Shown here piece after piece: positions 22,780 through 46,000 of a DNA stretch of 64,000 nucleotides. A model generated the notes under the pieces. It was not told the origin of the DNA and made no database searches. It saw only the letters and a list, made by a program, of their open reading frames with translations. Source of the DNA: Nanobdellota archaeon (GTDB taxonomy: Archaea; Nanobdellota; Nanobdellia; Woesearchaeales; JAHJEM01); NCBI GenBank assembly GCA_043825215.1, contig JBDRSD010000039.1:14302-78301 (forward strand), written 5' to 3'. A program made the translations under genes and the position numbers. The stretch's first letter is position 1, and every line of letters begins with the position of its first letter.

Positions 22780-22798
22780 CTTTTCAATAGTGTTCGTC

Positions 22799-25701: not shown

Positions 25702-25705
25702 GTAA

Positions 25706-26761: not shown

Positions 26762-26819
26762 CGCGTTGTTGGTTAAAGGACAGACCCGGGCAATTGCCCA
26801 GAATCTGCTGTATTAATGT

Positions 26820-27704
26820 TTACTCAATCTCTACCCAGAAGTAATAGTTGGTCTGGGTGTCTTCTGTTGCTTCTGTATGACCATCTTCCATGACTAGCAT
26901 CTGGAAGTCATAGGGAGTTCCGTCAAAGCCGATAGGGTCTGATGCGTTGTTTTCGTCATTCTCGATGAACGTGACAAAGACAAGCGCATTGCTGCCACCG
27001 TCGCTTACGCTTCCGTCAGTCAGGAGGACTTCTGTGAAATCCTTTGCCTGGGAGACATTGCCTATGTATGTCCAGGTTGTCGGGCAGGTCTGTTCATGGA
27101 TCGTCACTGTTCCGACATTGAACCTTGTGTGGTTGGTCCAGTTGAAGGTCACGTTGATCGTGTCTGGATCAGTATTCAGGAGACCGAACCTGGCATTCTC
27201 TGTGCTTGCATTGATATCAGATCCAACATAGGTTCCGTTACCAACATCTGCATCCGGATCTCCAGCAGTGAAATTGAAGCAGCGGATCTGACCCCACGCA
27301 ACTGAGGAGTTTGTCGACGTGTAGATCTTTCCCTGGGGCTCTGCATCGTTCCAATTGTAGAGCGTGTTGTTCTGGGCATCCTGCAAGATGAGCTGGCCGC
27401 TGATGTTCCCATAGTAGCCCTGCCAGGATTTTGTGACGGATGTCGCGTTCAACACGAGCTCAGTCACGTTGCCTGCTTCGGCAGGAGTTGACTTGGGACT
27501 ATACGATGTGTTCAAGAGGCGCTCACTTCTTCCAACAGTGAGGGTGTGCACACCGATAGGCTCTGTCGGCTCTGCAAAGCTGAATCGCAGCACAAAACTG
27601 AGAGCCAATATTGTCAATACCACAAAACTGATGTTTTTTATCAGGTTTCGTCGAATCATTTTGATTTCACCTTTTCCACGATCCCGTCCGATAAACGAGA
27701 CCAT
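26820..27704 (-). CDS. Secreted protein, family member 5 (294 aa). An alternative start is at 27659.
   Basis: MIRRNLIKNISFVVLTILALSFVLRFSFA. Motifs WQGYYGNISG, TLYNWN, GKIYTST, DFQMLVMEDG. C-terminus YYFWVEIE. Confidence 0.75.
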   Translation of the reverse strand: MVSFIGRDRGKGEIKMIRRNLIKNISFVVLTILALSFVLRFSFAEPTEPIGVHTLTVGRSERLLNTSYSPKSTPAEAGNVTELVLNATSVTKSWQGYYGNISGQLILQDAQNNTLYNWNDAEPQGKIYTSTNSSVAWGQIRCFNFTAGDPDADVGNGTYVGSDINASTENARFGLLNTDPDTINVTFNWTNHTRFNVGTVTIHEQTCPTTWTYIGNVSQAKDFTEVLLTDGSVSDGGSNALVFVTFIENDENNASDPIGFDGTPYDFQMLVMEDGHTEATEDTQTNYYFWVEIE

Positions 27705-29545: not shown

Positions 29546-32500
29546 CTATGTCAACTCAACATAGATCGCGAACGCATCTGTTCCTGCCTTGTATGCCCGA
29601 AGGAGCGCGGGAACCTTGATCTCATAATCATACACCCCATACATGCCCGCTCCTCCAAGAGATAATTCTGTCACAAAGACCAAGTCCTCCTCATCCGAAT
29701 CATCATACTGGAGATTCACCGACGTGTCATCTGCAGTGTCCCACAGGATGCCAGACACGAATGCAGAGGTATTTGTCGAGTTGACTATGGGGACGTCAGA
29801 GATGTCTCCAGAGGAAAAATTGAATGCGCGTGTCGCGACCGGGACATCAGTGCCATTGCCCCAGACAAGTTTCACCGAATCATTGAAGCCCGCACTCGCA
29901 AGCCCGGCATCGATATCTGTGAAATCGTTTCCGACAGTCAGGTTGTTTGTGCTCCTTCCAATCGCCTGAAGACCAGAAAAGCTGAAACTGCTGTCAATAT
30001 CAGCAACAAAGAGGAAGCTATTTTCATTCACCGACGCATTCGTGAACCCAAGGAGCGAATCGTTGACGCCAAATCCGAGGATGATGTTTTTCGTCACATT
30101 GCCATAATAGAGCTGGTACAATGAGACGGACAAATTATAACTCGCATTGTTATTCTGCTCGTCAGTCTCATTCACCTCCTGCCCGGGATCGATCATGACC
30201 CATATCTCGTTCTTGCCCGGGATGAGTATATGGGACACGTTCACGACAGCCCATTCCCCTGATGCAAGGATGCCGACAGTCTGATTAGAATCGATGAGAG
30301 TCCCTCCTTGAGAAGGATTCCCAAGATAGAAGGACACATTGAACTCGCTTGTCGCGTTCGTCAATCCGGCATTGGAGATGTTTGCGAATATCGTGATGTT
30401 GTTGCCTTCGACAACCGACTCGTTTCCGAAGAAGATGTCGCTCGTGTCCATGGTGAAATCAGGTCCTGTGATGTTCAATGTGAAGTTAGCGGGAGCGAAT
30501 CCCCAGTTGCCGTCCGTGTCGCTGCAGTTCACGTTCCATGCGTAAACCCCGGAGACCATAAAGATGTCTGCGAACGTGTTGTTCGCCCCATTCACAGGAG
30601 AGGAATCGGTCTGGTTCTTGCTGAAACCGCCGTCTTTCCCGAGATACAATGCACAGGACAGCAGATTAATATCGTGTGGAGCATACGTGAAATTCACAAG
30701 GTCCTCCCCTTGCGCGTATAGGTCATGGGGAGAGACAAGGGTGATGTTCGGAGTGGTGGAATCAGGATTCAGGTTGAAAGCAGCATACCCTTTTCCCGTA
30801 TTAAAGCCTGAAGCCTGAGCAAAAGCCACTGCAGAATAATTCCCGACAGGCCACCCGAGCATCGAGAAGTTGGTGATGAGAGTCCCGTTCAGCGCGTCAG
30901 TCAGCCCCGCCTTCAGCCCGAGGAGAGTCTCCTGCGGCAATATGCCTGCTATCGGTTCATTCTCGATGAGAATCCTGATGCGGATATCATCTGTATCGAA
31001 TTGATAACCGCCATGGATGACAAACCTGTCGAATTGGACAACGCTCGGGTCTGTCCCCTGGAGGGAATCGAGGTAAGTGCGATCCGTATCATTATAGACA
31101 GTGATGTTGATCTGCGTGTTGTTCCACGTCTGCTCGATAACATACCAGGTGTTCAGGAAGAAATACGACGTAGCTGTCGTCGCGACATTTCCTGCGCTCG
31201 TTCCTCCTGAACGCTCTTCAATGCCGAATGTCCCAGAAGGGTTGACATCCGTTATCTGGAAGCCGTAGCCATTGAACCCGCTGTCAGATATCGCATATCT
31301 TGATTGTTCACCGCCAGCTTCATTCGGCCTGTTAAAGCGGTACAGCGCGACATATCCTGTGATGTTCTTCGTGAAGAGGGCGTATCCGCCGTTCGGATCG
31401 TTGTTGGTGTCCTTTCGGCCCACATAGCTTCCGCCAGCCAGCGCAAGCCCCACCTGCCCCAGGCTGTAATTGGTCCAGTCAGAGATATTCCCTTCCTCAA
31501 AATCCTCATAAAAGAAGTAGATATTGCTCTGATTTGCCGGCGGGCTTGTGACTGTGCCGTTCCCAAAATAGACGTAATACATGCTGGTATGATTATTTTC
31601 GCTTATGCCCTCCTGGAGCCTGAACCACAAGTCTGTCTGGGTTGTGTTGAATGCAGTCGTGTTGACCCGGTCGAGCTCTATGTTTGTCTGGTTGGACTCG
31701 TTGAAAAACACGATCCGAATGTCATCGCCATCAGGCTGCATCTCCGGATTGGTCGTGTTGAGCGCGATAAGCACAGTATACCCCTCCTCGAGTATGCTCG
31801 CGTTGTTGTTCGTGATGTTTATGGGGAAGCGGTAGGGATAGCTGGCATTCCACCAGGGGACTTGAGTAATGCTGTTGTTCGTAAAGATCACGCTCACTGT
31901 CGCATCGGACACGACCGGATTCCCATAGGTGTCATTCGCCATGACCCTCACGATGAGCGTATCTCCTCTCTCGTATTCTGGCAGGGATGTGTTGACGCTC
32001 ACGTTAAGGAAAGGGATGATGTTCACGACAAAATCCCGTATCCCGCTGGCACCAAGATTCCCAGGGATGTCGTAGCACCTCACCTGCCAGGAATAGCTTC
32101 CGTCTTCAAAGGGGACGGAGAACGTCTGGGTCGCATCCGTCATGATTTCCGTATCGGTCGTATTCAGCGAGCCATTGATGTAGAGGGAGCAATTGGTGAC
32201 TGCGCTTGCGTCTGCCACCTTGTACGAGAACGTGACAAGGGCTGTTCCGACTGTGCCGTTTGCCTCTGGGAAATACATCGTCAGGTTCGGGCCTGTCGTA
32301 TCGTTCACCTGAAGGAAGTGCGTGACCACCTGCCCGGTGTAATTCTGGGTTGTATTGAAGAACGCAGTGATGTTATAGGTCCCCGGATTTGAGAAAAAGG
32401 TTATGTTCTCAATGGGTGATGACCCGTTCTGGATCTCGGTGCCGTTCAAGTAGAGGTGCACAAATCCTCCCTGCGGCAGATTTGAAACCACAGTCATATT

Positions 32501-35500
32501 GACATCCTGATCCTCATTGGCCGTAAGGTTCCCTTCTGTCCCGTTGAGGTAGAGGCTGATGTTCGCCTGCGCACGATTGACAGTATAGGCGTAATTCGGG
32601 GTGCTGTTCGTGTGGCTTACTGTGTCGTTTGCGTACCAAGTATATATATAGGAGCCTGCGGAAAGCCCTTGAACCGTGAAAGAATAGATGCTGCCCGAGC
32701 CGGCCACGCTCTCATTCATCAAAGTCCCTGTGAAATTATGCTCGAGAAGGACGGCTGCGACGCCAAAGCTGTCAGTCCATGTGATGTTGAACTCGTAGAG
32801 CTGGGTTGCATTGAACGTCGCTGGTGATGCAGGAGAGGTCACATTGTTGGAATAGGCAGGAGCTGTCGTGTCCACTTTGACTGTCCGGTTGTAGTCGCCA
32901 TACTTCGTATTTCCTGCAGTGTCGTTGCACTTGATGTTCCAGAGATAATTCCCATCAGGAAGAAAAAGCGTGAAGTTGCTTGAGGCATTGCTTTGCGGCG
33001 CATCGGTCATATTCTCTGCGTAAACCCCTGAAAAATTTGCCAGGAGGGTGCACTGGTAAAGATGTGTATCATTTGCCACATAGGTGAAATTTACCATAGA
33101 GGATAATGAGAAGGTATCATTTGGCGGGCCGGCCACATCCAGGGAGGGATACGTCACATCGACCGTGAAATTTCTCCAGCCAGAGCTTCCCAGGTTGAAG
33201 TCTGTGCCATTGTCATAACAGGAGATGCTCCAATTATGGGTGCCCTCAGCAAGGCCTGCAACTGTGAAATTGTTCGCGATAAATGTCTCGACTGACGTAT
33301 TGGTCTGGTTAAGCAGGCCGTCTATGTGTATGCTGCAATTTGCGATGCCTGTCGCATCCTCTGGAGTGAAGTTGAAGTTGACATCCAGTGAGTTCTCGAA
33401 GCCATCCTGTCCAGGATGATGCAACGTGATGAGAGGCGGATCGTTATCGATGACAAGGACACTGAGATTGCTGATTTCAGACGAGTTCTCATTCCCAAGC
33501 GAGTCTGTGCAATTCACCATCCACGTGTGGTTGCCGTTCAGGACGAATCTCGTGAAGGTGAAGGGATCTCCCTCCTGGATTCCTGTCTTGGTCATTTCAA
33601 CAACGCCATCGATGATGAGCTTGCATGAGCTGATGTTCGCATAGGTATCATTCGCATTTGCCGTGAAGTTGATATTGTTGGTCGTGTTCTCGAGGGTATT
33701 GTTCGCGGGGCTTATAATCCCAATGGCGGGACCTGAGGTATCTGCAGTAAGTGTGTAGTTTCCTGACGCGAAGTTCGAATTGCCTGCAGTATCATTGCAC
33801 TGCGCATTCCAGTCAAATATTCCCTCCGGGACAGTAATGGTGAAGTTATTGACCGTGTTGTTCAGTATAGTCGTGTTGGTCGAATTCGCAAGGAACAGCC
33901 CTGAGAAATTCCCGTATAATGTACAGGAACTGAGGGTGTTGGTATCTGCAGGGGTATAGGTGAATGTGATTGAGGCATTATTGGTGATTGTCCTATGGGG
34001 TGGGCTGTTCAGGGTCACGGACGGGGCAATGGTGTCTATGATGTACTGGAACACGCTTATGGATGATGTGGAATTCCCATAGAGATTATAGGCGTTTACC
34101 CGCCAATAATACCGCGCATTCGCGTCAAGGGCATAGTCGACCTTGTAGGAGGTGTTTCCTATCGGGGATGTCTTGTAGGTATAGTCAGGGCTGCCGAAGA
34201 GAGGGTCCTTGTCCAGCTGGATCGTGTAGTTCAGGAAGTTCTTTCCTGAAGTCGCATCCCAGGTGAGGTTAGGGAGCAGGTTTTGGCTTTCAGACGCATT
34301 CACCGGCGATGAGAGATTGAACGAAGATAAGGGAGTCGCAACCGCCGTGAATGTCAGGTTGGTATAGGTGCTGTGGTTGGCCTGGCTGATGTTGTCCATG
34401 GCATAGATGTCCGTGACATTATACAATCCAAGCTGGTACGTGTCTGTCCATTCCGCCTGCCAAAGGCTTGACCTTGACTCGTGGCTTATCTCGATGACAA
34501 GGCCTGTCCAATTGATCTCGTCTATATTTGTCTCATCATAGTAATCCATGCCAGCCCCCCTGATCCTGACATCCCTGTTCGCCGACGTCAACCATGCCGT
34601 GAGGATTGCACTGTCTGTGGTTGTTGCAGAAAATGTCCCTGCTCCTGTTGCGCTGATGTTGCCTATTGTCACCCAGCCTCCCTGGTCGATGGTTGCGAGC
34701 GCCACCTCAAGGTCAGGATTGTCATTCCCGCTCATGAGCGAACCGCTTTTGTTATAGGAGGAGACGGTGACTTTCACGGTGATGTTGTTGATGCTGGCAA
34801 GGACTGTCGTGTCGATATCATCATAAGTTATCCAGGCTGTTGCGGCATCAGTCATGTTCTCGAAGATGACTGAGCTCGTATTAGGCCAGGTGATGATCCA
34901 GCAGTTGATCAACGATGGCTGGGTTGAGGATCTCGTCCTGAAATTTACCGCCCTGATGGTGCTGGTTGAGTCGAGCATGTACCCCCAGTAATCCCTCGTG
35001 TGGGCTGTGCCCCCTCCTGCTTCCATGGAATTGTCGCACGTGAGAAGGGTCCTGTTCAGGCTGCTGGCTGAAGGCGAGAACGCGCTTGTGATGTTCTGGT
35101 CAGTATATGCTGGACTTATGCGAAAGTGCTGGGTGGATGCCTGCGAGTCATTCTCGAAATTGGCCACGTATGCTGTCACCTGCGATTGCACTCCGGTAAG
35201 CCCGGTCTCTGCGACATAGAACTGGATGTTCGTGGCATTCGTGATGTTGTTGATGATCGCGTTCTGCCCAACGCCGTCATCTGCCTGGCGATGGTTATGG
35301 ATGGCAAATGAGATCGAGGTGTTCACCGGGCTCATGCTCACGTCCTGCGTGGCAGGCTCCGCGTCAGGCATGACCGTGAAAAGCTGCTGGACAACGCTTG
35401 CGTCCCTGAAGCACAAGACATCAGCGACAGTAGTTCCGGCAGCTGCAGGAGCTGTCTCAGGATCACGGTAAAAATCGATATTGTCGGCTGCCGTTATGTT

Positions 35501-38500
35501 GCTTTCCACCTCTGCCTCGGCGAAATCGTTGATATCATTAGAATTGATACTCGTCGACCGGTGCACATTCACGAGGCAGCTGTCGGCAAAGCCTGCCGGA
35601 AGGTCGGGGTCCGGATCAAATGTGGCGGCCGTCTGCCCTGATGCCCATGAGATCGTGAAGTTCCACGCCTGGATATTATCTGCCTGAAGTATGGAGTACG
35701 ATGCCAAAAGGTCTTCTTTTCCCGTGCTCGCATACCTTGTTGCCGTGAGCTGGTTGCAGACGTCTCCAGTGCAGTTCGCCCATTCGATATTCGCTGTAGC
35801 CCCGTCAGGCTCATTATTCGAATCATTGTTCGCCATGGCATACCGCCTGATGATGAATGCCTTGCTCCTGTTGTATGTGTTCTGGAGGGTGACTGTATCT
35901 GACAGGCTGGTGAGGATGATGAAACCAGTCTCAGCCCTCGCATTGGTGGAACCATACACCCGTGCGTACGCCTGCTGCTCGCCGCTCTCCCTGTCTGGCG
36001 TGTCATACGTGAGGTTCTCCAGAAGCTGAGTCAGGCTGGCATTCACTTTTGTCCCGTTCGGATACGTGAATGTGGCATTGACTGAGGAAACAGTGTCGTT
36101 TCCGAAAAGGTCGGTGACAGTCACATTAAGCATGACCGGATCGTTCCCCTCGATCAGCGAGGCATTGAACGTGGCATTCTCAACCACTGGAACATGGTTG
36201 ATCTCGCTTCCCATGATGACGGCTGCTGAATAGTTGAGGAGAATCTGTGCTGTCATATTGTACCAGTCAATACTCTCTGCAGTGTCCATGACCCTGAATT
36301 CGTGAATAGTTCCGATAAAATAGTTCCCCGCCTGGGTGGTACTGTCATGATAGTCCTTCGTGTCAGAACCGGTGTATGCGATGCCGCCGTTTCCTGTGTG
36401 GGCATTCATAAGTGCCGCTGCCACTCTCGCGTCCACTTGATTGCCGTTGACGATGAGAGAATAGTTTCCAGGATAACTGTAGGTCAGAACTGCATGATAG
36501 ACAGTATTTGCAGATATTGGCGTATTGATGTGGTCTCCTGCCCATCCCTGCGATTCGCTCCACCAGCGGGCATACAGCTGCCCTGCATCAATATAGAGCA
36601 TGACTCCGTTGGAAGCGCCCCCTTCTGCAAACAGGGTCTGCCTGGTTGTCACATCATTTCCAGTGGCAAAGAGGGCTTCATGGGTCCTCACGCTCCATTG
36701 TTGCTCCCAGTATGCCATGTCAGTCATATTCCACGCGCTCGTCCCGTCAAAGGAGCGCCCATAGCCAATGTACGTATTCTTGGCTCCTGGCGTCCCGATA
36801 TCTGAAACCCTGTCCAGGTTGTTTGCTGTGGAATCATTGCCGCTCGCATTCATGTGATAGACAATGCCAAAGTTGCTGTTCCACGTCCCTTCGGCGTCCT
36901 CTCCAGGGGAGGCAGCGGGGTTGTCATAGTACATTGCAATGACCTTCCCGTTGGCAGGTAGCATGTCGATCTCGACCCAGACCTCTGCCGCGATGGCTGT
37001 CTTGTATTCTATCTCGTAGTCCAGCGCTGATCCTCCATTGTCGCATGTCGTGTTCACGAAACGCAAGTCGCTGTAATCCGCGTTCATATTTGCAGTAGAA
37101 GAGACGTTGAGATAGACGGGAAAGTCGATGAGTGCCACCAATCCGTTGTTCTTTATTTCAATGTTCATGCACCTGCTCCAATTCTTGTTCCACCATTGGT
37201 CAAGACTGGTTATGGTGACCGTGTCTGGTGTAGAGAGTGCCTCATATCCCTGCGATGAGCCGTTGCACGTGACATTCCACGTGTATTCTCCCGTATAGAT
37301 GAATGATCTCGAAAACTCGTAGAGCTTGCTTGTGCTGTTATACGTCATGTTTATTGTTGAGCTGTCAACAGTAAGCATACAAGATATTCCTACACCGGTA
37401 ATCGGGACACTTGACGTCTTGTTTGAATAGTTCACGAAGAATCCTACCTGTTCAAGGACATATTTCGTCTGGGAGCCTTCTTCAGAGTCTGTACTGTCCC
37501 ATATGCCAAGATCAGCATTCGCTCCTGTCACATACGAAGAGAAAGAGGTCACGTTGAACGAGATGATGCCCCCTGCATACGTATTGATTGCGCATTGCAC
37601 TGGAAGGCAGGGGAGGCTGTCCTTGAGCACTACTGGCGTCTTGGTGTAGTCCAAGCCATATATGCTCAAGATGGCGGTCTTGTTGAGACGCGGCTCTTCG
37701 GAGCTGTTGACGCTGATGCTATTATTCGCTATCGTGATGACCGCCCCGAGATCAGCCCCGCCTGAGAGATTCACCGGCTCGGTAAAGAGTATGCGGCCGT
37801 ATGAGGGCATTTCTATTGTGAGATTCACGATATTCTCAGGGTCGACCCCTGACATGTTGGTTCCGTTTAGCCCACCGAACAATATCACATCAAGCACACG
37901 CTCTCCTGTCTCCTGCAGGTTGCCATAGACGTCGGCGCAACGAATCTTCCATTGAATCCTTGCTGGTTCATCCACGACATGGAAAAAGCTTTGGTTCTGT
38001 GCCTGATCTATTGTCACATTGGTCGCGTTTACCGTCGAATTGATGACAAGGCTGCAATTTCCGATTTCGCTCTCGTCAGAGACAGCATATCTGAAGCTGA
38101 TCATGCCATCAGCGTTTCCTGTGTTGTTCTGCGGCTCTGTCAGAGCAATAACAGGGGCTGCTGTCTCAATGACTGTGAGGTTTTGTGGAGTAGCATTGTA
38201 TGCGCTGTTTCCTGCAGGATCAGACACTGTCACATTCACGAACGTGAACGTGCCAACCGTATTCCCAACCTCCAGAACGAGGCCGTACACGCCATCGCCG
38301 AGGATGCCTGCGCATACAGAGGTATCATCAAGGAGGATGTTTTTTTCACTTCCATTTGAAAGATTGACATCCGCGGTGACAGAGGCGATGCCGTTCTCAT
38401 CTCCAATTCCAGACACATTAATGCAGACAGATTCATTCCTGTCCGCAGGACCCGACGTATTCAATTCCTTCTGTCCTATCGTAGGAGATGCCGTATCAAT

Positions 38501-41500
38501 ACTAATTTCCACGAGGACCGAATCATTAAAATTGTCCTCCCCGTCAGAGGCATTGAGAGATATATTGTATGTTCCATCCTCAAGAAGCACGGGATCATAG
38601 GTCAAGGACCAATACCCCTCTGAGGTATTTCCTGATGAGAGAGAAAGCACATCCTGATCAACAACATCACCTGTCCCATTCAACACGACAAACTTCGCGC
38701 TTGACACACCAGTACCTGAATCATTGATGCTCGCATTGACAAGAAATTCCCCATTATACAATCCGCTCATGTTCGGCGAGGCAACAGATACCTGCGGGGG
38801 AGAACCATCCTCAGACCAGGCAAATGCGACGCTGGTGAGGCTTATCACACGGGAGTCATTTGTCACAAACAAGGCATCATACACCATGCTTTGGCCAGCA
38901 ATAAATCCGGGACAGGATTTCATGTCAAGCCTCTGACCGTTCTGCGCTGTACAATACGATGCCCCGCCGTCCGCACTTACCTGTAAGCTGATGTTGTTTG
39001 CGCTGTCAGTTCCTGCCTCCTGCCAAGTTATATTCTTGAACACTGCGATCTCACCAGAAGCGTTGACTGCTCTGCTTATGAGATGGCCGGCATCCCCTGC
39101 CGCCCTGAATTCTTCAGATCCTAAGCTTATGGCAGGCTCTTTACCTAAGAACTCACGCACGGTCACATTATCATAATAGGCCTGGGTGCCATGCATCATC
39201 AGGCCGATGCCACCTGACGACCACGCTGTGTAATTGTACTCATGGGTAATGCCGTCAAAGATAGCCCGAATAGTGTCCTGGCCAGCATCATCGAACACCT
39301 TGATACGCAGGGGTGACCATACATCCCTGTTCACCGTGACATCCGTGTATTCCTGCGGACTGGTTGTATAACTGCCAGCGATCCATTGTCGAAACCAGAT
39401 GCTGTCATCAGGATCAACCCTATCATCAAGGATAGATGCATAATGGTCTGTCTCATTCTGCCACCTGAAGAGCACTCCTGCAAATCCACCTGTTGCTCCT
39501 CCGCTCAAGATGTTGATCATGACATCAACGGAGTAGTTCCCCCATGACGAATTCGAGTAGGATGCACGCATGTATGTTGCCAGGTTGTCGCTCTGATAAT
39601 ACGCGTTACTGTCGACCACCCATATGCCGTTATGCGCAATCCAGCCGTCTGCAGTGCCATCATCGAAATCCTCATAGAGGAGATAGACCTTGGAAGTATC
39701 GTTTGGCGGGCTCTGTGCTGATGGATTTGCGAGGTAGATATAATAGGATGCGTTTGTCACGCCCGCCTGAATCGGATTTCTAAGTCGGAACCTTACTTCT
39801 GTCGAGCCATTCGCACAGTCAAGAACAATCCTGTCCAGTTCAATGGATTGCTCTCCTTCCAATTCAACGATCCTCAGGTCATCACAGTCTGTCTGCAGCC
39901 TGGTCCTGTCGATGAGGTCTGTCGTGTTTATCGTAAAATTAATAGTATAGTCCCCCGAGATATCATCTGCATTCGTATTCGTGATGTTGACTTGCATACG
40001 ATACGAGTAGCTCGAGTTCCACCAGTCCTCCCTAATGCCACGGAAGCTCACATTTTGTGCCTGCCATGTTGTCCCATTCAACAATTGTATGCTCGATTCA
40101 TCTGCATAAGAATCACTAAAGGAGTGATTGAGATCAAGAGTGATTGACGACTGATCGTTTCCCACATTCCCAAAAGAATCATTGACATAGACGTCGAGTA
40201 TATAACCCCCCTCTGCCAGGTCAAGAAAATCCTGATACGAGGAACATGAACTACACAAGGTGACATTTTCTCCGCCATCAACAGCATACCACGCCTCCTC
40301 CACAGTCTCGCCAAAGGTCACATTCAAGAGAGGTGTCGGATCAGAGATGTTTCCTACAGGAGAAAGTATTGATACACTCGGAGGAGTCACATCAACAGTG
40401 AATGAGTAATTAATAGGATATGTCCCGCTAAAGTCAGTCTCATCATAGGCAAGGCAGTTCCACTGCCAGGTCCCGTCAGGAATATTCTTTGAGAAGTTCG
40501 TCGAATTCGACAGGCCGCCAAGAGGCACTGTTTCATTTGCATGCCAGCCATTCCAATCCCCATACAAGGTGATATTGACCAAGGGGTCATTCGAGCTTGC
40601 GCTGCAATTGAAATCAATAAGAGACGTTGTCTGAGTTGCTCCATTTTCAGGAGCGTCCAGATTGACGACGAGAACATTGGCCTGCTCATCAGACACGTTC
40701 GCACCAGGCTCACTTGTCGTAAACAATCGCACGGCAACATCATCCCACCAGCCATTCCTGTACGCGCCAACCCCATAATAGCCAGTGGTGTACGTCGCAT
40801 CAGTTGCTGTGAGGTTGCCCCAGGGAACCATGCTTGCATTCCACACCTCCATCCTCATGAAGCTGTCTGCCTGCCATGTGAACTTGATATAATACCACTT
40901 GAACTTTTCGACAGTATTCGCTGTTGATGAGGCGATCACTGAGCCGCTGTTGAAATTCCTCCTTATTTGCATATCAGAACTGCTTCCTGTCCCTGATCGC
41001 CAATCAAGCACTGCCTGAAAACCATTTGCTTCGGTTGTCGATGACATCCCCAATTCAAGTCCTGGAAGGTCTGCAGTCGTACCATTCCCCTGAGAGAACA
41101 CCCATCCCTCGATGATCAATCCCCGCGCCATTGTCTCAGGCTTCACTGCCCGTTTATAGCCAGCATTGCCGTCTCCTTGCAGACCGTAGTTTCCATTCTT
41201 TTTGGCATTTGCAGTTATTGTCGCACCAACTGTGCCGTCCGTGAAATTATGCGTGAGGTCCTCAAAATCATCCCAGAGCCAATAGATGTTTGACTTGTTC
41301 TCAGGAGGCGCTGGCGCTGTCGGATTTCCATAATAGACAGTATAATTCGCATCCCATGACCATATCGGCAGCCTACTCTTGATGAAAAAAACAGTGTTCG
41401 TATCATTGCACGGCGTGATATTGATCCTGTCCAATTCCACATTCTTTGTCCCGTTGTACCAGGTGAACCGGACGTCAGAGCAATCGGTATTTACCTTACC

Positions 41501-43078
41501 TTCGGATATTAGCGTCTGCGTATCAAGACTTATGTTAAGAGTGTACCCCTGGGCAAGGGATGTGCCATTGTTGTTCGTGAAATTGATTATGCGACGATAT
41601 GCATAGCTCCCATTCCACCAAGGCTTTGCATCATTATACGCGACAGCGCTCGCCGCACCATACTCGAAAAGAAGCGCGTGATATCCTTGCGTATGCACCC
41701 TGCTCCTCTCTTCACCGATGCCTTCGCAGGAATAATCGCTGACAACGATACTCCCATTCACCATTTGATCCGGAAGGATATTTCCGTCACAGGAAATATC
41801 AAGGAATTCAAGGTCTCCATACGAGTCATCTTCTGACCACCAAGACGTATTATCAAACGGCGTCACCACCAGGTCTGCCAGTCCACTAGTCTGAAATTTC
41901 ACAGACCAGATCCCGCCAACAATGGGAAAGCTCTGCACGTTCAAGACCTCGATCAAGCCTTCCGCAAAAGCGATCATGCCTTCACCAGCGTATTGCGCAC
42001 TATACTCTTCACCAGGGATTATCCGCTTGACAAGCTCCCACTTGCCAGGGCACGTCAAGCTGGACATATCAAAATCTGCACAGCGATACAGCGCATTTCC
42101 CTGGGCAATCTTTTTCAGCGTTCCGCCCGCATAAGATATATTGGAAAAATCAAGAGCTAAACCTGCCCGGACATCCTTGAGCGGAATCAGTCCCGACGAG
42201 ATATTCTCGACAGTCAACCGCAGCCCCTCTGCAAATGTCACGTTATGCACATCAATGGAAAACCCCTCGCCATACAAGAAGAGATCATATTGATTTCCCT
42301 GGATTAGCTGCTCAATATCCACCTGCTGCCTCGACTGCACCTGGATGATGTTTCCGCTCTGATAATCAAACGCGAGGGACTTTTGCATTGCGCCCGCATC
42401 AGAGAATGCGATGCCTATCTCACCTGAAAGGCCGGGCGTGCTGACAATGGGCGCCCTGCCTGCGAATGAGTCATTGACCAGGTGATGACCTTTCTGGCCG
42501 ACAACGCGGAACTGCCTTGCCTCTTCATGGCCTGTGACAAGATCGTTGAAGGTGACCTGGTAGTTTCCAACGCGTGGCGGGACAAATACTGCTGCCCCCC
42601 CATCCTCAGGCCGATAGAACCAGAAGTCAGAAGAGGATGATACCGTCAGCGTATAGGGATTGCCTGCAGTGATTACGATCTGCACCTCTTCTCCAACCAC
42701 GAACTCCTCCTTCTCAAGGGCTATTGCACCGGTTGATTGCAAGATATGGCCAACGGTGAACTCTAAAGCATCCTCAATCACGCCACTCTCTGACGTAAGG
42801 ACTATCCTATACACCCCGTCTGCCGAAGGCAGGAACACCTGCTCGCCGATGGGAGAGCCAAACAGCCTGAAGACCTTATCTCCTGCATAAATGTCAATCC
42901 GGGACGTGTTTGTCGTGTTCGCAAGAAAATGCACTTCATCACCTGACTGATAGTGGTAACGGTCGATCGTGATATACCCGCCAAATACGCCTGGGAGAGA
43001 GACCATGCTAAAGAGGATGCAGCAGAGGATAATAACCCATGCCCTGCTTCCCCGCCCTTTTGCCTTGCCACTCATCAT
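29546..43078 (-). CDS. Giant exported protein, 4510 aa. It has a signal peptide, at least four DUF2341-like domains, a LamG/ConA-like domain, many Ig-like domains, a CARDB domain and a conserved ~190-aa C-terminal domain.
   Basis: Signal peptide WVIILCCILFSMVSLPGVFG. DUF2341-like domains: WWNGSYAYRRIINFTN...DVRF...YTVYYGN, WWNSSYSYRMQVNITN, WWNKNWSRCMNIEIKNN, WWNASYPYRFPINITN. LamG-like region with WWSESQGW and FIGTIHEFRV. CARDB: NITIFANISNAGLTNATSEFNVSFYLG...VMIDPGQEVNETDEQNNNASYNLSV. The ATG overlaps the TGA of the upstream giant gene (ATGA at 43075..43078). Confidence 0.85.
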   Translation of the reverse strand: MMSGKAKGRGSRAWVIILCCILFSMVSLPGVFGGYITIDRYHYQSGDEVHFLANTTNTSRIDIYAGDKVFRLFGSPIGEQVFLPSADGVYRIVLTSESGVIEDALEFTVGHILQSTGAIALEKEEFVVGEEVQIVITAGNPYTLTVSSSSDFWFYRPEDGGAAVFVPPRVGNYQVTFNDLVTGHEEARQFRVVGQKGHHLVNDSFAGRAPIVSTPGLSGEIGIAFSDAGAMQKSLAFDYQSGNIIQVQSRQQVDIEQLIQGNQYDLFLYGEGFSIDVHNVTFAEGLRLTVENISSGLIPLKDVRAGLALDFSNISYAGGTLKKIAQGNALYRCADFDMSSLTCPGKWELVKRIIPGEEYSAQYAGEGMIAFAEGLIEVLNVQSFPIVGGIWSVKFQTSGLADLVVTPFDNTSWWSEDDSYGDLEFLDISCDGNILPDQMVNGSIVVSDYSCEGIGEERSRVHTQGYHALLFEYGAASAVAYNDAKPWWNGSYAYRRIINFTNNNGTSLAQGYTLNISLDTQTLISEGKVNTDCSDVRFTWYNGTKNVELDRINITPCNDTNTVFFIKSRLPIWSWDANYTVYYGNPTAPAPPENKSNIYWLWDDFEDLTHNFTDGTVGATITANAKKNGNYGLQGDGNAGYKRAVKPETMARGLIIEGWVFSQGNGTTADLPGLELGMSSTTEANGFQAVLDWRSGTGSSSDMQIRRNFNSGSVIASSTANTVEKFKWYYIKFTWQADSFMRMEVWNASMVPWGNLTATDATYTTGYYGVGAYRNGWWDDVAVRLFTTSEPGANVSDEQANVLVVNLDAPENGATQTTSLIDFNCSASSNDPLVNITLYGDWNGWHANETVPLGGLSNSTNFSKNIPDGTWQWNCLAYDETDFSGTYPINYSFTVDVTPPSVSILSPVGNISDPTPLLNVTFGETVEEAWYAVDGGENVTLCSSCSSYQDFLDLAEGGYILDVYVNDSFGNVGNDQSSITLDLNHSFSDSYADESSIQLLNGTTWQAQNVSFRGIREDWWNSSYSYRMQVNITNTNADDISGDYTINFTINTTDLIDRTRLQTDCDDLRIVELEGEQSIELDRIVLDCANGSTEVRFRLRNPIQAGVTNASYYIYLANPSAQSPPNDTSKVYLLYEDFDDGTADGWIAHNGIWVVDSNAYYQSDNLATYMRASYSNSSWGNYSVDVMINILSGGATGGFAGVLFRWQNETDHYASILDDRVDPDDSIWFRQWIAGSYTTSPQEYTDVTVNRDVWSPLRIKVFDDAGQDTIRAIFDGITHEYNYTAWSSGGIGLMMHGTQAYYDNVTVREFLGKEPAISLGSEEFRAAGDAGHLISRAVNASGEIAVFKNITWQEAGTDSANNISLQVSADGGASYCTAQNGQRLDMKSCPGFIAGQSMVYDALFVTNDSRVISLTSVAFAWSEDGSPPQVSVASPNMSGLYNGEFLVNASINDSGTGVSSAKFVVLNGTGDVVDQDVLSLSSGNTSEGYWSLTYDPVLLEDGTYNISLNASDGEDNFNDSVLVEISIDTASPTIGQKELNTSGPADRNESVCINVSGIGDENGIASVTADVNLSNGSEKNILLDDTSVCAGILGDGVYGLVLEVGNTVGTFTFVNVTVSDPAGNSAYNATPQNLTVIETAAPVIALTEPQNNTGNADGMISFRYAVSDESEIGNCSLVINSTVNATNVTIDQAQNQSFFHVVDEPARIQWKIRCADVYGNLQETGERVLDVILFGGLNGTNMSGVDPENIVNLTIEMPSYGRILFTEPVNLSGGADLGAVITIANNSISVNSSEEPRLNKTAILSIYGLDYTKTPVVLKDSLPCLPVQCAINTYAGGIISFNVTSFSSYVTGANADLGIWDSTDSEEGSQTKYVLEQVGFFVNYSNKTSSVPITGVGISCMLTVDSSTINMTYNSTSKLYEFSRSFIYTGEYTWNVTCNGSSQGYEALSTPDTVTITSLDQWWNKNWSRCMNIEIKNNGLVALIDFPVYLNVSSTANMNADYSDLRFVNTTCDNGGSALDYEIEYKTAIAAEVWVEIDMLPANGKVIAMYYDNPAASPGEDAEGTWNSNFGIVYHMNASGNDSTANNLDRVSDIGTPGAKNTYIGYGRSFDGTSAWNMTDMAYWEQQWSVRTHEALFATGNDVTTRQTLFAEGGASNGVMLYIDAGQLYARWWSESQGWAGDHINTPISANTVYHAVLTYSYPGNYSLIVNGNQVDARVAAALMNAHTGNGGIAYTGSDTKDYHDSTTQAGNYFIGTIHEFRVMDTAESIDWYNMTAQILLNYSAAVIMGSEINHVPVVENATFNASLIEGNDPVMLNVTVTDLFGNDTVSSVNATFTYPNGTKVNASLTQLLENLTYDTPDRESGEQQAYARVYGSTNARAETGFIILTSLSDTVTLQNTYNRSKAFIIRRYAMANNDSNNEPDGATANIEWANCTGDVCNQLTATRYASTGKEDLLASYSILQADNIQAWNFTISWASGQTAATFDPDPDLPAGFADSCLVNVHRSTSINSNDINDFAEAEVESNITAADNIDFYRDPETAPAAAGTTVADVLCFRDASVVQQLFTVMPDAEPATQDVSMSPVNTSISFAIHNHRQADDGVGQNAIINNITNATNIQFYVAETGLTGVQSQVTAYVANFENDSQASTQHFRISPAYTDQNITSAFSPSASSLNRTLLTCDNSMEAGGGTAHTRDYWGYMLDSTSTIRAVNFRTRSSTQPSLINCWIITWPNTSSVIFENMTDAATAWITYDDIDTTVLASINNITVKVTVSSYNKSGSLMSGNDNPDLEVALATIDQGGWVTIGNISATGAGTFSATTTDSAILTAWLTSANRDVRIRGAGMDYYDETNIDEINWTGLVIEISHESRSSLWQAEWTDTYQLGLYNVTDIYAMDNISQANHSTYTNLTFTAVATPLSSFNLSSPVNASESQNLLPNLTWDATSGKNFLNYTIQLDKDPLFGSPDYTYKTSPIGNTSYKVDYALDANARYYWRVNAYNLYGNSTSSISVFQYIIDTIAPSVTLNSPPHRTITNNASITFTYTPADTNTLSSCTLYGNFSGLFLANSTNTTILNNTVNNFTITVPEGIFDWNAQCNDTAGNSNFASGNYTLTADTSGPAIGIISPANNTLENTTNNINFTANANDTYANISSCKLIIDGVVEMTKTGIQEGDPFTFTRFVLNGNHTWMVNCTDSLGNENSSEISNLSVLVIDNDPPLITLHHPGQDGFENSLDVNFNFTPEDATGIANCSIHIDGLLNQTNTSVETFIANNFTVAGLAEGTHNWSISCYDNGTDFNLGSSGWRNFTVDVTYPSLDVAGPPNDTFSLSSMVNFTYVANDTHLYQCTLLANFSGVYAENMTDAPQSNASSNFTLFLPDGNYLWNIKCNDTAGNTKYGDYNRTVKVDTTAPAYSNNVTSPASPATFNATQLYEFNITWTDSFGVAAVLLEHNFTGTLMNESVAGSGSIYSFTVQGLSAGSYIYTWYANDTVSHTNSTPNYAYTVNRAQANISLYLNGTEGNLTANEDQDVNMTVVSNLPQGGFVHLYLNGTEIQNGSSPIENITFFSNPGTYNITAFFNTTQNYTGQVVTHFLQVNDTTGPNLTMYFPEANGTVGTALVTFSYKVADASAVTNCSLYINGSLNTTDTEIMTDATQTFSVPFEDGSYSWQVRCYDIPGNLGASGIRDFVVNIIPFLNVSVNTSLPEYERGDTLIVRVMANDTYGNPVVSDATVSVIFTNNSITQVPWWNASYPYRFPINITNNNASILEEGYTVLIALNTTNPEMQPDGDDIRIVFFNESNQTNIELDRVNTTAFNTTQTDLWFRLQEGISENNHTSMYYVYFGNGTVTSPPANQSNIYFFYEDFEEGNISDWTNYSLGQVGLALAGGSYVGRKDTNNDPNGGYALFTKNITGYVALYRFNRPNEAGGEQSRYAISDSGFNGYGFQITDVNPSGTFGIEERSGGTSAGNVATTATSYFFLNTWYVIEQTWNNTQINITVYNDTDRTYLDSLQGTDPSVVQFDRFVIHGGYQFDTDDIRIRILIENEPIAGILPQETLLGLKAGLTDALNGTLITNFSMLGWPVGNYSAVAFAQASGFNTGKGYAAFNLNPDSTTPNITLVSPHDLYAQGEDLVNFTYAPHDINLLSCALYLGKDGGFSKNQTDSSPVNGANNTFADIFMVSGVYAWNVNCSDTDGNWGFAPANFTLNITGPDFTMDTSDIFFGNESVVEGNNITIFANISNAGLTNATSEFNVSFYLGNPSQGGTLIDSNQTVGILASGEWAVVNVSHILIPGKNEIWVMIDPGQEVNETDEQNNNASYNLSVSLYQLYYGNVTKNIILGFGVNDSLLGFTNASVNENSFLFVADIDSSFSFSGLQAIGRSTNNLTVGNDFTDIDAGLASAGFNDSVKLVWGNGTDVPVATRAFNFSSGDISDVPIVNSTNTSAFVSGILWDTADDTSVNLQYDDSDEEDLVFVTELSLGGAGMYGVYDYEIKVPALLRAYKAGTDAFAIYVELT

Positions 43079-46000
43079 CTGATCTCACCGTAAAATACGA
43101 CTATGTCGTTTGTTCCTGTCAATTCCCGTAACGTTGCCGGAATCCTGATCTCAAAATCAGAGATTCCCGCGAATGACTCCATGCCCTCATTCACTGCGGT
43201 GATGAGCACAAGGTCCTGGGTTCCTGCATATTCTGTGCCGCCGTCCGACGCGTCCCAGAGAAGGCCTGTCTCAAAGGTTGTCATGTTCGTCGAGTTCACC
43301 ACAGAGACATTCGCGACATCCTTTGCGAAGATTGTATAATTGCGAAGTGCAATGGGAACGCCACCCACTGTATAGGTCACCGTGATATTATCCACATATG
43401 ACGAAGACCCGAGTGCCGTATCTGCCTCAGGGAAATCATCTGGTTGTGACAAGTTGTTCGTATCCCTTCCTAGTGCCTTCAGGCTGAAGAATGAGACCTG
43501 GCTGTCGATGTCTGCAATATAGATGTTCGTCCCATTCTCACCAAATGGCGTCCAGTTGTAGATGGTGCTGTTCGACTGGCTCCTAAGCGCCTTCTCCACA
43601 GTCGTGTTCCCTGCGACAAACATCCAGAACCCGACCGTGAAGGTCTGTGATGCGTTGTTGTTCTCTTCGTTCGCTTCCGCAACCGTGCCGTTCGTCTCGA
43701 GCGGAGCGTCGACGATAACGCGGAAATTATTGAAGCCAAGCGTGAGGTTGAAGGTCACGTTGAGCGTCATGTTCATCGACGCGTTGAGATAGGGAATGGT
43801 GAAGTTCTGGCCGATCTGGGAAGTCTTGTTTCCCGTATAGTTGAAGAACTGGACAGTGAAGTTCTCGGCATCGCGCACGCCCTCGTTGAAGATGACAACT
43901 GAGACAGTCACGTTCTTGCGCTCGATCAGGTCCGAGTCGTTCAGGGTGATGTTGCCGCTGTTCACGAGAAGATCTGCAGAAGTCACATTGAAGAAGTATG
44001 TCTCGCTCACATTATAGTTTCCGGCAAGATCGACGCATGAGACGTTCCAGTAATGCAGGCCGATCGAGAAGGTGAACACGTTGATGACATACTCCTCACC
44101 CTGTACGACAGTTGTCGCATTATAGAGCGCATGGTCTATCGTGAGATTGCAAGAGGTGTTATGCGACCTTGATTCGTTGACCGTGTAATTCAGAGTCACG
44201 ATGGGAGAGGAGACATTCTCATAATAGATGGGAGAGTTGAGGATGATTGTCGGCGCGACAGTATCAACGTAAATTGTCCTGTTTGTCGAATTCTTGACAT
44301 TTCTCGCACGATCAAACGCCTCAAGGACCAGGAAGTACGTGTCATCAGTGAGATTTGCCAGGATGTCTGAGGTCGTATTGGTCACATTCGAGATGTTTCT
44401 GAGATTGACCTGGCCTGTGGTATTCCTTGTCCCGTTGATGAAGAACGTGTAATTGATTATCCAGTCCATGTTGTCTGTGATGTTGAAAAATATCTCCGGG
44501 CTCGCATTCCTGAACCAGGTCCCGTTGGCTGTCGTGATGTTCGGCTCTGGTTGGGTGAAGTCAATATACAATGAGATGTTTCCTGTCGTCCCATTCGATT
44601 CCGTGACCGACGTGTCATAGCAGACGATGCTCCAGTTATGCCAGCCCTGTTCAAGGTTTTCCAGGGTGAAGAAGTTCTCCTGGTTGTTCTCTACGGCGTT
44701 GTCTGTATCATTCAGGGACTCGTCAAGCCATAAGGAACAGTTGTTTATGTCATCATTGTCTGTCACGTTATATGATATCGTGTGGTTCACTGAGCTGTTC
44801 CAGGTATTGTTCATCGGATAGTTCACGATAAGGTACGGGGCGAGGCTTGTCGCGAAATTGATGGTCTCTGAGACATTCGTATTACTCGCCGTATCATAGC
44901 ATTCAATGTACATCTCATGGTTCCCGTCTATGATGCTTGAGAGGGAGTAATTCGTGATCGTGTTGTTATCCACCTCCATCCAGTCATAATAGAATGCATC
45001 AAGTACAAGGCGACACGTCATATTATCATCGAATGAGTCAGTGGCAATCCAGGTGAAATTCACCGTGTTGTTCAGGATGATCAGCCCTTGCGTCGGATAG
45101 ATGACCTCAATGGACGGGTCTGTCGGATCATAGGAAAAATTCCAGACCGTTGAATTACCCATCTTCACACTATTATCTGTACAATTGATGCTCCAATTAT
45201 GGAAACCCAAAGAAAGATTGTCCAGACTGAATGTATTTGTCTGGTTGTTCAAAATGGACGTATTCGTCCTGTTCAGGATTCCGTCAATTGTTATCGAGCA
45301 CGCCGTGATGTTCCCATAATCCTGCGGCCTGTAGGAGAACAGGGCAGAGTCCTGGTTGGAATACCCGTTATTCGGCGGAGAGAGCAGGGTTATTGTCGGA
45401 GGGCCATAATCGACCCTGAATGTCCTTGTCTCGCTCGAATTCGGATTATTGAACGTGTCAACACAGCCTACATACCAGGTATGGATGCCATCACTGATGT
45501 TGGTCATGGTCACGTTATAGACAGTATTGTTCGACACGTTGAAGTTTGACACCCGCTCGTACGAATCCATGAAAAAGTCGCATATCGCATAGGATGAATT
45601 GTCATCGAACACCGTGAAGTTGAACGAGACATTCCTTATCTGGGTATAATAGTTCTGCTCTGGCTCATGCAGGACAATGGTCGGCGGGACCCTGCCAAAT
45701 GTCAGCGTCTGGGATGCCACATGGTCGTTCAGGGTCTTATTCACGATGTAAGACAGCTTTTCCTGGTTGTCTATCTCGCACGTATAGACCTCTTCCCCTT
45801 CCTCACCAGTCACATTCACATTGAATGTTGCCTGGCCCTGGGCGTTTGTCATAGTCGTGTCGATCAGGTCATAAGAGCCATTGTAGAGATACACCTGATA
45901 GTTCTGGATGGGCACGCCGCTATGCTTATCCGTCACATTACATTTCATGTCAACAAAGTTGGTCGTCACAATCCCTGAGGGAGAATCCCAATAGACTTTC

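Follow-up and report, generated by a model that had tools for sequence, protein, structure and literature searches.

What holds a giant surface protein on the cell of a DPANN archaeon, and with what does it assemble? The question is raised by the window analysed here (the whole stretch of 64,000 nucleotides from contig JBDRSD010000039.1), in which two adjacent giant genes, designated A and B, both end in a CARDB domain followed by a C-terminal domain of ~190 aa (CTD). Among the uncultured archaea of groundwater and sediments, Woese-/Pacearchaeota-type DPANN rank with the most abundant, and a life in attachment to hosts is presumed for them; to our knowledge, the means of this attachment have not been described. 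A DPANN genome is typically roughly 1 Mb, and A (9083 aa) and B (4510 aa) together, about 41 kb of coding sequence, would then take up several percent of it. The features of the pair are as follows.

43075..63999, minus strand: 3' part of giant gene A, 6974 codons within the window, frame open to the window edge
43648..43977, minus strand: CARDB domain of A, residues ~6675-6784 of the part encoded in the window (PF07705, E 3.6e-6 for the long piece)
43078..43641, minus strand: CTD of A, 'GTQDL' subtype with a shorter loop, ending ...VVFYGEIR and then the stop
43075..43078, minus strand: ATGA stop/start overlap of A and B, read from the sequence
29546..43078, minus strand: giant gene B, 4510 aa
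42980..43078, minus strand: N-terminal signal-peptide-like segment of B (MMSGKAKGRGSRAWVIILCCILFSMVSLPGVFG), read from the sequence
30143..30463, minus strand: CARDB domain of B, residues 4206-4312 (PF07705, E 3.4e-10)
29549..30133, minus strand: CTD of B, residues 4316-4510, 'D.EDLVF' subtype with a longer loop, ending ...AIYVELT and then the stop

The frame of gene A runs without a single internal stop through 6974 aa up to the window edge, and its full length of 9083 aa was obtained from an independent Logan assembly. Gene B is identical to NCBI MFH1916375.1, annotated as 'Ig-like domain-containing protein [Nanoarchaeota archaeon]'. Pfam matches were found to Big_13, LVIVD, NPCBM_assoc and CARDB in A, and to Big_7, Big_3_3, Big_13, 3keto-disac_hyd and CARDB in B. 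Upstream, the proteins have Ig-like repeats of ~600-700 aa in common (residues 2975-3716 of B versus 6098-6791 of A; 26-28% identity, E down to 8e-40).

A first-pass annotation of the DNA had stated that the C-terminal modules are homologous and that the genes overlap by ATGA. The last 319 aa of both proteins align with 32% identity over 315 aa (BLASTP with compositional adjustment, E 4e-44), and the terminal 200 aa alone with 34% identity (E 3.6e-33). The motifs listed in that annotation (F.ADIDS..SF..L.A.GR.TNNL, NST, G.LWD..D and DYEI..PA.LR) are all seen in the alignments, as are the termini AIYVELT and VVFYGEIR. The CARDB assignment was borne out in both proteins by Pfam matches above the gathering score of PF07705 (22.7 bits), taken as the threshold for membership; within the terminal 319 aa the scores were 32.4 bits (E 1.1e-7) for A and 45.6 bits (E 8.5e-12) for B. 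CARDB covers only the ~100 aa before the CTD, and the ~190 aa of the CTD lie outside this model. On the minus strand the junction reads ...GGT GAG ATC AGA TGA, with the stop of A (TGA, 43077..43075) sharing its letters with the start of B (ATG, 43078..43076).

The similarity could in principle reflect nothing but the composition of Asn/Ser/Thr-rich glycoproteins, or an assembly error could have split a single gene into A and B, and N-x-S/T is indeed abundant in both proteins. A purely compositional similarity, the reservation attached to the original claim, is excluded by the composition-adjusted BLASTP values given above, and non-polar and aromatic positions are invariant among the hundreds of relatives (E<1e-30) that the profile of the family described below recovers. 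Against a split gene, a complete CTD closes A, a signal peptide opens B, the same junction is present in the independent Logan assembly, and the same tandem arrangement occurs in other MAGs. We consider both readings refuted and A and B separate genes. The 4-nt ATGA junction between tandem CTD genes was also found in three unrelated loci (L021, L038 and L050), which makes four independent loci with the window counted; variants are a 5-nt spacer (L052) and a gap of about 105 nt (L029). With ATGA conserved across relatives, A and B have the sequence signature of a coupled gene pair, and their translation may be coupled. That A and B arose by recent duplication was rejected because each CTD has closer relatives in other genomes: the two domains belong to different subtypes and are 34% identical to each other versus 45% and 50-53% to proteins from other genomes (53% for the CTD of B and P0001). 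A rule that tandem pairs combine one GTQD and one D.ED domain was also rejected, as L029 and L038 are GTQD/GTQD.

The domain had been taken to come from no recognised family, and this view held: neither the CTD of A nor that of B matched Pfam-A 2025 or NCBIfam 20.0 at E<=1. Sequence-profile searches of the PDB gave a single, spurious nanobody match (E 0.003), and no published description of the CTD or its operon was found in the literature on DPANN/Woesearchaeota giant proteins, CARDB and donor-strand pili. A profile search for the domain at the C-termini of other proteins, as the first-pass annotation had suggested, yielded a large family of 806 protein clusters (defined at 50% identity) at E<=1e-3, of which 649 also reach E<=1e-30; its members are named only 'hypothetical' or 'CARDB domain-containing'. 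The CTDs of A and B score 222 bits (E 9e-67, profile positions 2-193) and 246 bits (E 4e-74), respectively, against this profile. The module had been described as shared by partner proteins; its homology in A and B stands, and it is not special to the pair, being part of a DPANN-wide family. All 54 genome loci with a CTD are from DPANN archaeal MAGs, and within the genomes sampled here the domain occurs exclusively in the Woese-/Pace-/Nanoarchaeota group. In 160 CTD proteins, ranging in length from 153 to 6414 aa, no more than 5 residues separate the end of the domain from the C-terminus in 159, and 0-1 in 147. CARDB lies directly upstream in 45 of 56 mid-sized members, and stand-alone proteins of ~320 aa consisting of signal peptide, CARDB and CTD exist as well. 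The AF2 model of the CTD of B was moderate overall (pLDDT 66) with a core at pLDDT ~85. Overall, the CTD is an extracellular domain, built mostly of beta-strands, that has not been described before and is new as a family; it clearly qualifies as a candidate Pfam entry, and its fold may be new as well.

A signal-like N-terminal segment is present in 49 of the 63 full-length family members of at least 1000 aa. The giants have 5-6 sequons (N-x-S/T) per 100 aa (5.9 in gene A) and the small secreted paralogs described below 3-5.6, versus 0.2-1.0 in the neighbouring ORFs o434, o171, o200, o594, o130, o709, o967 and o404. The giants have no known C-terminal anchor, since a hydrophobic 19-mer occurs within the last 250 aa of just 2 of 160 family members and NCBIfam sorting domains gave no matches. 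Archaeosortase-type signals (a short motif, TM helix and basic tail at the very C-terminus, as in PGF-CTERM and PEF-CTERM) were not found in the CTDs. In these Sec-secreted surface proteins, which are heavily N-glycosylated, the domain always makes up the very C-terminus, usually after CARDB, and no membrane anchor follows it.

Downstream of B, five small secreted paralogs that are essentially the CTD alone are encoded within 22045..27704.

26820..27704, minus strand: 294 aa, CTD profile match, signal peptide with SFA↓EP site
26003..26761, minus strand: 252 aa
24474..25283, minus strand: 269 aa in the ORF list; translation probably begins at an internal Met ahead of the signal peptide
22799..23545, minus strand: 248 aa, the paralog that was modelled
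22045..22779, minus strand: 244 aa

Identities among these proteins are 30-42% (30-37% between the 294-aa paralog and the other four), and they have no Pfam or NCBIfam match for the domain either. The 248-aa paralog has 55 homologues, all 'hypothetical'. Alignment of its family with the CTD by hhalign gave 98.5% (E 1.5e-15), end to end to both C-termini, and 98.7% (E 3.9e-16) with CARDB included, the alignment of the small proteins extending back into the last CARDB strand. The HMMs of the CTD and of the small family match each other's families reciprocally. The AF2 model of the 248-aa paralog (pLDDT 88.8, pTM 0.81) is a monomeric, complete fold, with secondary-structure elements in the same order as in the CTD model. 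The small secreted proteins of ~250 aa have the same fold as the CTD. By inspection, their N-termini correspond to signal peptides of the SPase-I type: n-, h- and c-regions are present, and the hydrophobic stretch precedes sites of the A-x-A type (e.g. VRA↓EPSG and ASA↓LPSG). The mature N-terminus behind them is conserved, [ED]P.G[AP]; class III (type IV pilin-like) signal peptides were not seen. The small paralogs carry a conserved N-terminal extension of ~45 aa with an AGNVTEL.I block, at the place taken by CARDB in the giants. Of 45 CTD loci with enough flank, 23 have one to six small paralogs downstream, in 15 within 1.5 kb, and 22 have none within 10 kb. The small paralogs are likelier partners of the giants than A and B are of each other.

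An anchoring or assembly function, as proposed in the first-pass annotation, appears plausible, and the small paralogs nearby strengthen the case for it. Since the CTD also occurs as small secreted proteins just downstream, it is probably the means by which the giants dock on a cell-surface structure. We see roughly an even chance that the CTD is a subunit-like docking or assembly domain by which adhesin-like giants are tied to a structure on the cell surface built from the small paralogs. The latter would assemble into, or belong to, a fibre, sheath or lattice; the giants would enter it via their subunit-like CTD and would so be kept on the cell, displayed outward toward host or substrate, the ATGA overlap possibly ensuring that both are made together. 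A precedent is found in FimH-type tip adhesins of chaperone-usher pili, in which a receptor-binding part is followed at the C-terminus by a pilin domain, homologous to the FimG/F/A subunits that the operon also encodes (PMC12122975, PMC5798934). The likeness lies in a large adhesive protein ending in the fold of the small subunits encoded beside it, in several diverged subunit paralogs per operon, and possibly in an N-terminal extension that is on the small subunits and not on the adhesin. Archaeal donor-strand filaments, namely the Sulfolobus threads (Saci_0406 with the Saci_0405 cap; PMC9715654), Pyrodictium cannulae (10.1101/2024.12.30.630787) and bundling pili (PMC12337348), likewise have Sec-secreted, SPase-I processed, heavily N-glycosylated subunits with a conserved mature N-terminus and a subunit paralog with a special role encoded alongside; they do not need dedicated machinery. 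Against the docking reading, no assembly machinery (ATPase, peptidase or usher-like protein) was recognisable in the neighbourhood of the giants, about half of the CTD loci (22 of 45) are without a small paralog within 10 kb, and the model of the CTD is only moderate. The extension of the small paralogs versus CARDB in the giants may parallel the extended subunit versus unextended adhesin of donor-strand filaments such as the threads (PMC9715654). In contrast to these filaments, neither homology nor a structural match to their solved subunits was detectable, and an Ig-like/jelly-roll fold related to known pilins (chaperone-usher, thread, cannula or bundling pilus) was not found; moreover, thread, cannula and bundling-pilus subunits are not described in their papers as C-terminal domains of multi-thousand-residue proteins.

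The CTD might instead be a generic envelope anchor that binds a membrane lipid, a glycan, the S-layer or an unrelated component, with small paralogs that act independently and form no polymer. The C-terminal position without a TM anchor, the missing small paralog near half of the CTD genes, the stand-alone ~320-aa proteins and the monomeric, complete fold modelled for the small paralog would all suit such a role, which we nevertheless consider rather unlikely: it leaves unexplained why the small proteins have almost nothing beyond the domain, why they occur as 2-6 tandem diverged copies in conserved order directly after the giants and why their mature N-terminus is conserved, and the CTD bears no likeness to SLH, PGF-CTERM or other known anchors. 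It is improbable that the CTD is a sorting or secretion signal, read by a dedicated export or processing system that perhaps removes or covalently attaches it. Like PGF-/PEF-CTERM with archaeosortase and the T9SS CTD, it is strictly C-terminal and common to unrelated secreted proteins of one lineage, with cargos of all sizes. Unlike sorting domains, it has no TM helix, basic tail or match to NCBIfam sorting-domain models, and it also occurs in stand-alone secreted proteins; at ~190 aa it is large for a signal and several-fold longer than the archaeal sorting models of 25-27 positions. N-terminal Sec signal peptides are already present, no sortase, peptidase or transporter that could serve is conserved in the vicinity, and the small paralogs would be signals without cargo.

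We give equally little credence to a lectin-like effector role, in which the CTD and the small paralogs would bind host glycans or proteins and the CTD would be the business end rather than the attachment end of the giants. Such a role would fit a beta-rich, extracellular domain in adhesin-like proteins, and the divergence of the paralogs together with the two CTD subtypes could mirror ligand diversity. Other symbionts and episymbionts have giant surface proteins as well: those of the tandem Giant1-5 genes of Apilactobacillus kunkeei (PMC12863079) and of Omnitrophota (10.1101/2023.11.21.568195), for example, resemble A and B as multi-thousand-residue extracellular proteins encoded in tandem and taking up several percent of a small genome. 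They differ in lineage and domain content, and the text of the Omnitrophota preprint (10.1101/2023.11.21.568195) makes no mention of DPANN or CARDB.

The docking of giants via a subunit-like domain may extend to a second family, F303, encoded directly after the small paralogs.

21133..22044, minus strand: F303 protein, 303 aa, secreted, very rich in sequons (8.3 per 100 aa)

This protein is 65% identical to the ORF at 10572..11510, and the gene order giant, small, small, F303 recurs in L017, L033, L039, L040, L042 and L049. The F303 domain also closes a 2420-aa giant (window 1..7041) and a 526-aa protein (7684..9264). A CTD at the end of this third giant was therefore rejected, its terminal domain being F303; an apparent 7-kb 'ORF-free' region (1..7000) was rejected as well, since the ORFs there run off the window. 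The principle of a giant plus small proteins is thus seen a second time at the locus. Tentatively, and with more doubt than for docking itself, the operon of one or two giant CTD proteins, two to six small paralogs and F303 proteins with their giant fusions might encode a previously unseen surface organelle, with a subunit fold without known relative and adhesins plugged in by the CTD, serving as host-attachment apparatus of Woesearchaeales/Pacearchaeales-type DPANN. The CTD family with its 806 clusters, the small paralogs of the same fold and the conserved gene order give the giant DPANN genes a common handle, by which it becomes directly testable how these proteins are held on the cell and what they assemble with.

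Three further genes lie between or next to those described; neither an Rfam nor a tRNA scan of the window gave a match.

27884..29188, minus strand: 434-aa protein between giant gene B and the small paralogs, no Pfam match
25186..25701, minus strand: 171-aa protein among the small paralogs, Sigma70_r4_2-like helix-turn-helix (Pfam E 6.7e-7)
23542..24144, minus strand: 200-aa ArsR/MarR-type HTH protein among the small paralogs (Pfam HTH_5, E 5.8e-7)

The 434-aa protein is probably cytoplasmic, because it has no hydrophobic segment and few sequons; 12 related loci contain relatives, which in several cases likewise lie between giant and small paralogs. The ORF of the 171-aa protein overlaps that of the 269-aa paralog by about 100 nt, so one of the two starts may be miscalled. 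The 171-aa protein occupies the same position in L006, L010, L013 and L038, and the position of the 200-aa HTH protein is conserved in L006, L010, L013, L036 and L038.

Homology between the C-termini of the giant surface proteins A and B, encoded on the minus strand, was assessed with composition-adjusted BLASTP. The last 319 aa aligned over 315 positions with 32% identity (E 4e-44), which upholds the homology proposed in the first-pass annotation; for the final 200 aa the identity was 34% (E 3.6e-33). The similarity is confirmed to be far beyond chance, and a compositional or assembly artefact was excluded. CARDB (PF07705), claimed for both proteins, scored above the Pfam gathering score in each, and the ~190 aa that follow it (the C-terminal domain, CTD) had no match in Pfam-A or NCBIfam at E≤1 in A or B, in line with the earlier remark that this part resembled no recognised family; all the motifs listed at that time are present. 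The two CTDs are of different subtypes, with a short 'GTQDL' loop in A and a longer 'D.EDLVF' loop in B. The closest identities in other genomes were about 45% for the CTD of A and 50–53% for that of B, compared to 34% between A and B; since each CTD is closer to proteins of other genomes than to the other, the pair does not stem from a recent duplication.

29546..43078, minus strand: gene B, 4510 aa, ATG start

NCBI lists the very protein encoded by gene B under MFH1916375.1 ('MAG: Ig-like domain-containing protein [Nanoarchaeota archaeon]'), which places the window in a DPANN archaeal MAG (source sample SRR26275509). Upstream of its stop at 43075, the frame of gene A comprises 6974 codons without an internal stop and is still open where the window ends; the protein measures 9083 aa in a separate Logan assembly for this organism. 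The junction reads ...GGT GAG ATC AGA TGA TGA G..., with the TGA of A at 43077..43075 and the ATG of B at 43078..43076, so that stop and start overlap as had been claimed. Tandem genes both ending in a CTD were found in the window and in six related loci (L006, L021, L029, L038, L050 and L052), with ATGA at the junction in the window, L021, L038 and L050. This conserved junction suggests that A and B are translationally coupled.

A word-indexed search with the last 196 aa of B yielded 15 relatives (37–53% identity), several of which are ~320-aa proteins from Nanoarchaeota MAGs, composed of a signal peptide, CARDB and the CTD. In Nanoarchaeota MAGs from Hainich groundwater, where relatives occur in ERZ1292630, and from elsewhere (L001 6810-11014 and L004 7093-10930), such a stand-alone module of ~310–337 aa lies directly downstream of a ~950–980-aa protein related to the window ORF 11645..14548 (967 aa); the opposite strand carries 393–537-aa proteins with fused, more distant relatives of the small family described below. 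A profile of the CTD alone (A2), searched against 1.84 billion cluster representatives, matched 806 proteins with a cutoff of E≤1e-3; tightening it to 1e-10 and 1e-30 left 782 and 649, respectively. CTD-bearing proteins range from 153 to 6414 aa, some of the shortest being gene fragments on short contigs. Among the best 160 of the 806, the domain ended 0–5 residues from the C-terminus in 159. In the sole exception, P0153, the CTD occupies residues 1004-1192 of 1756 aa; a wrong gene call could account for this, as could fusion with, or read-through into, the gene that follows. Of 56 mid-sized members, 45 had CARDB directly before the CTD. A hydrophobic, signal-like stretch at the N-terminus was present in 49 of 63 full-length members of at least 1000 aa, and only 2 of the 160 had a hydrophobic 19-mer within their final 250 residues; the CTD proteins are thus predicted to be Sec-type secreted, without a recognisable C-terminal membrane anchor.

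A scan with one genome per species gave 54 CTD loci, all in archaeal MAGs and mostly labelled Woesearchaeota, Pacearchaeota, Nanoarchaeota/Nanoarchaeia or Diapherotrites; the other labels were 'Euryarchaeota archaeon' (one), 'archaeon' (two) and 'uncultured Methanosarcinales' (12 bins). A DPANN-type operon was seen in 'uncultured Methanosarcinales archaeon' MAGs L007, L009, L010, L024, L031, L038, L046, L052, L057 and L059, and L031 and L059 have the gene sizes, gene order and operon architecture of the Woesearchaeota locus L019. The Methanosarcinales bins with the CTD operon are probably mislabelled. The CTD is a DPANN-wide C-terminal module that is common to small secreted paralogs too. Of the first-pass description as a domain shared by partner proteins, the homology in A and B stands, and the restriction to two partners does not.

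These small proteins emerged when the CTD profile was run against six-frame ORFs of all fetched loci, which returned weak, often near-full-length matches to ORFs of ~250 aa that follow many CTD genes at a distance of a few kb, including ORF 22799..23545. Five paralogs lie downstream of B:

26820..27704, minus strand: small paralog
26003..26761, minus strand: small paralog
24474..25283, minus strand: small paralog
22799..23545, minus strand: small paralog
22045..22779, minus strand: small paralog

They share 30–42% pairwise identity. Each begins with a Sec/SPase-I type signal peptide; the mature protein opens with the conserved sequence [ED]P.G[AP] and continues with an extension of ~45 aa, in which an AGNVTEL.I block is conserved, before a domain that ends in ...YYFWVE[LI]x at the C-terminus. 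All 55 detected homologues are annotated as hypothetical and lack a Pfam domain; every source that names the organism gives DPANN archaea. Profile–profile comparison of the CTD alignment with that of 54 small-family members gave 98.5% probability (E 1.5e-15) over 163 columns reaching both C-termini. With 56 CARDB+CTD proteins the values were 98.7%, E 3.9e-16 and 180 columns, and the alignment extended back into the last CARDB strand. Reciprocally, an HMM of the five window paralogs matched the CTDs of several giants (E 1e-5 to 1e-10). Three motifs correspond between the small family and the CTD: W[QK].[FY].GN[VI][TS]G with Y.GN, DFQMLVPE with DYEIKVPA, and the C-terminal YYFWVEL-end with FY.EL-end. 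The AlphaFold model of the CTD (17 sequences) was moderate (pLDDT 66 overall, ~85 in the core) and that of the small protein (54 sequences) confident (pLDDT 88.8, pTM 0.81), the latter showing a signal helix, an extended N-terminal segment and a beta-rich domain with two short helices; the secondary-structure elements follow in identical order in the two models. Profile comparison, shared motifs and modelled element order together indicate that the CTD and the small paralogs have the same fold.

Gene order was compared in the 45 genome loci whose downstream flank measured 3 kb or more. One to six small paralogs followed the CTD gene in 23 of these, in 15 of them within 1.5 kb. The minimal order is giant (CTD), small, small and F303, a second small secreted family (L017, L033, L039, L040, L042 and L049); L006, L010, L013 and L038 have the long form found in the window, with about five small paralogs and interspersed ArsR/MarR-type HTH and Sigma70_r4-like proteins.

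23542..24144, minus strand: ArsR/MarR-type HTH protein, interleaved with small paralogs, also in L006, L010, L013 and L038
25186..25701, minus strand: Sigma70_r4_2-like protein, interleaved in the same way in the same four loci

The conserved interleaving suggests that both are dedicated regulators of the locus. A and B have 5–6 N-x-S/T sequons per 100 aa, the small paralogs 3.0–5.6 and F303 proteins 8.3; the neighbouring ORFs o434, o171, o200, o594, o130, o709, o967 and o404 (numbered by length in aa) have only 0.2–1.0. The high densities are what extracellular proteins with heavy N-glycosylation would show.

The position of F303 behind the small CTD-like paralogs is conserved in about 17 related loci. 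The window holds the following members and F303-bearing proteins:

21133..22044, minus strand: F303 protein, 303 aa, small, secreted, extremely sequon-rich
10572..11510, minus strand: F303 protein, 312 aa, small, secreted, extremely sequon-rich
7684..9264, minus strand: 526-aa protein, C-terminal half an F303 domain
1..7041 (L060 4564-11826), minus strand: third giant gene, cut off by the left window edge (2420 aa in a Logan contig)

The two small F303 proteins are 65% identical and had no credible Pfam or NCBIfam match. The third giant contains DUF2341, Big_13 and Big_7, and ends in an F303 domain, not a CTD. Two unrelated small secreted families at this locus thus each turn up again at the C-terminus of far larger proteins, which strengthens the case for terminal modules as the functional common ground of large and small proteins.

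The CTD is best explained as a subunit-like docking or assembly domain, a reading on which we are evenly balanced. It is argued for by the strictly C-terminal position, the lack of a membrane anchor and the Sec signal peptides. A secreted C-terminal domain could also be a generic envelope anchor, which we consider unlikely, or a sorting or secretion signal, which is a good deal less probable still. The docking or assembly reading draws further on the small secreted paralogs, which share the CTD fold and are encoded in several copies immediately downstream, and on their conserved N-terminal extension, which occupies the place of CARDB in the giants; that the CTD is a ligand-binding domain seems as improbable as the sorting signal. 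On the docking or assembly reading, the giants would be integrated via the CTD into a surface structure that the small proteins form or are part of.

The closest functional analogue is that of FimH-type tip adhesins, whose C-terminal pilin domain is homologous to the subunits of their operon (PMC12122975, PMC5798934). A close one is also offered by the chaperone-free donor-strand filaments of archaea, namely threads (PMC9715654), cannulae (10.1101/2024.12.30.630787) and bundling pili (PMC12337348), with Sec-secreted, SPase-I processed, glycosylated subunits whose mature N-terminus is conserved, and with a cap protein paralogous to them. Both comparisons concern only how the system might work; by the fold test it belongs to neither group. 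By this analogy, a subunit-like C-terminal module on large adhesins would be of an already known kind. Literature searches found no description of the CTD or its operon; both the CTD family and the small-protein family are new, and their fold may be new as well. There is a fair chance, though less than even, that the operon marks a new type of archaeal surface organelle for host attachment by DPANN.

Further genes of the cluster are:

27884..29188, minus strand: 434-aa protein, sequon-poor, without TM segments, between giant B and the small paralogs
18778..19170, minus strand: 130-aa SET-domain protein (Pfam E 5e-12), within the surface-protein cluster
14926..17055, minus strand: 709-aa multi-TM protein, with Cys-rich CGGPCP.C repeats and a low-complexity stretch rich in Gly and Ala
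19205..20989, minus strand: 594-aa protein, N-terminal signal segment, C-terminal TM helix and cytoplasmic zinc ribbon
7035..7550, minus strand: 171-aa ORF, Phage_integrase match (E 2.9e-16), shorter than full integrases

The SET-domain protein had no relative among the related loci, and the 709-aa protein neither a Pfam match nor relatives among the fetched loci. Relatives of the 434-aa protein occur in 12 related loci, in several at the equivalent position. The 594-aa protein is sequon-poor, has relatives in 10 related loci and bears a weak resemblance, below threshold (E 5e-5), to ArlF/ArlG, the stator proteins of the archaellum; it could be a membrane component of the system. On the Logan contig, the Phage_integrase ORF and the beginning of the third giant gene have 4 nt in common; the ORF could be what is left of a mobile element, or encode a recombinase that acts on the surface-protein locus.
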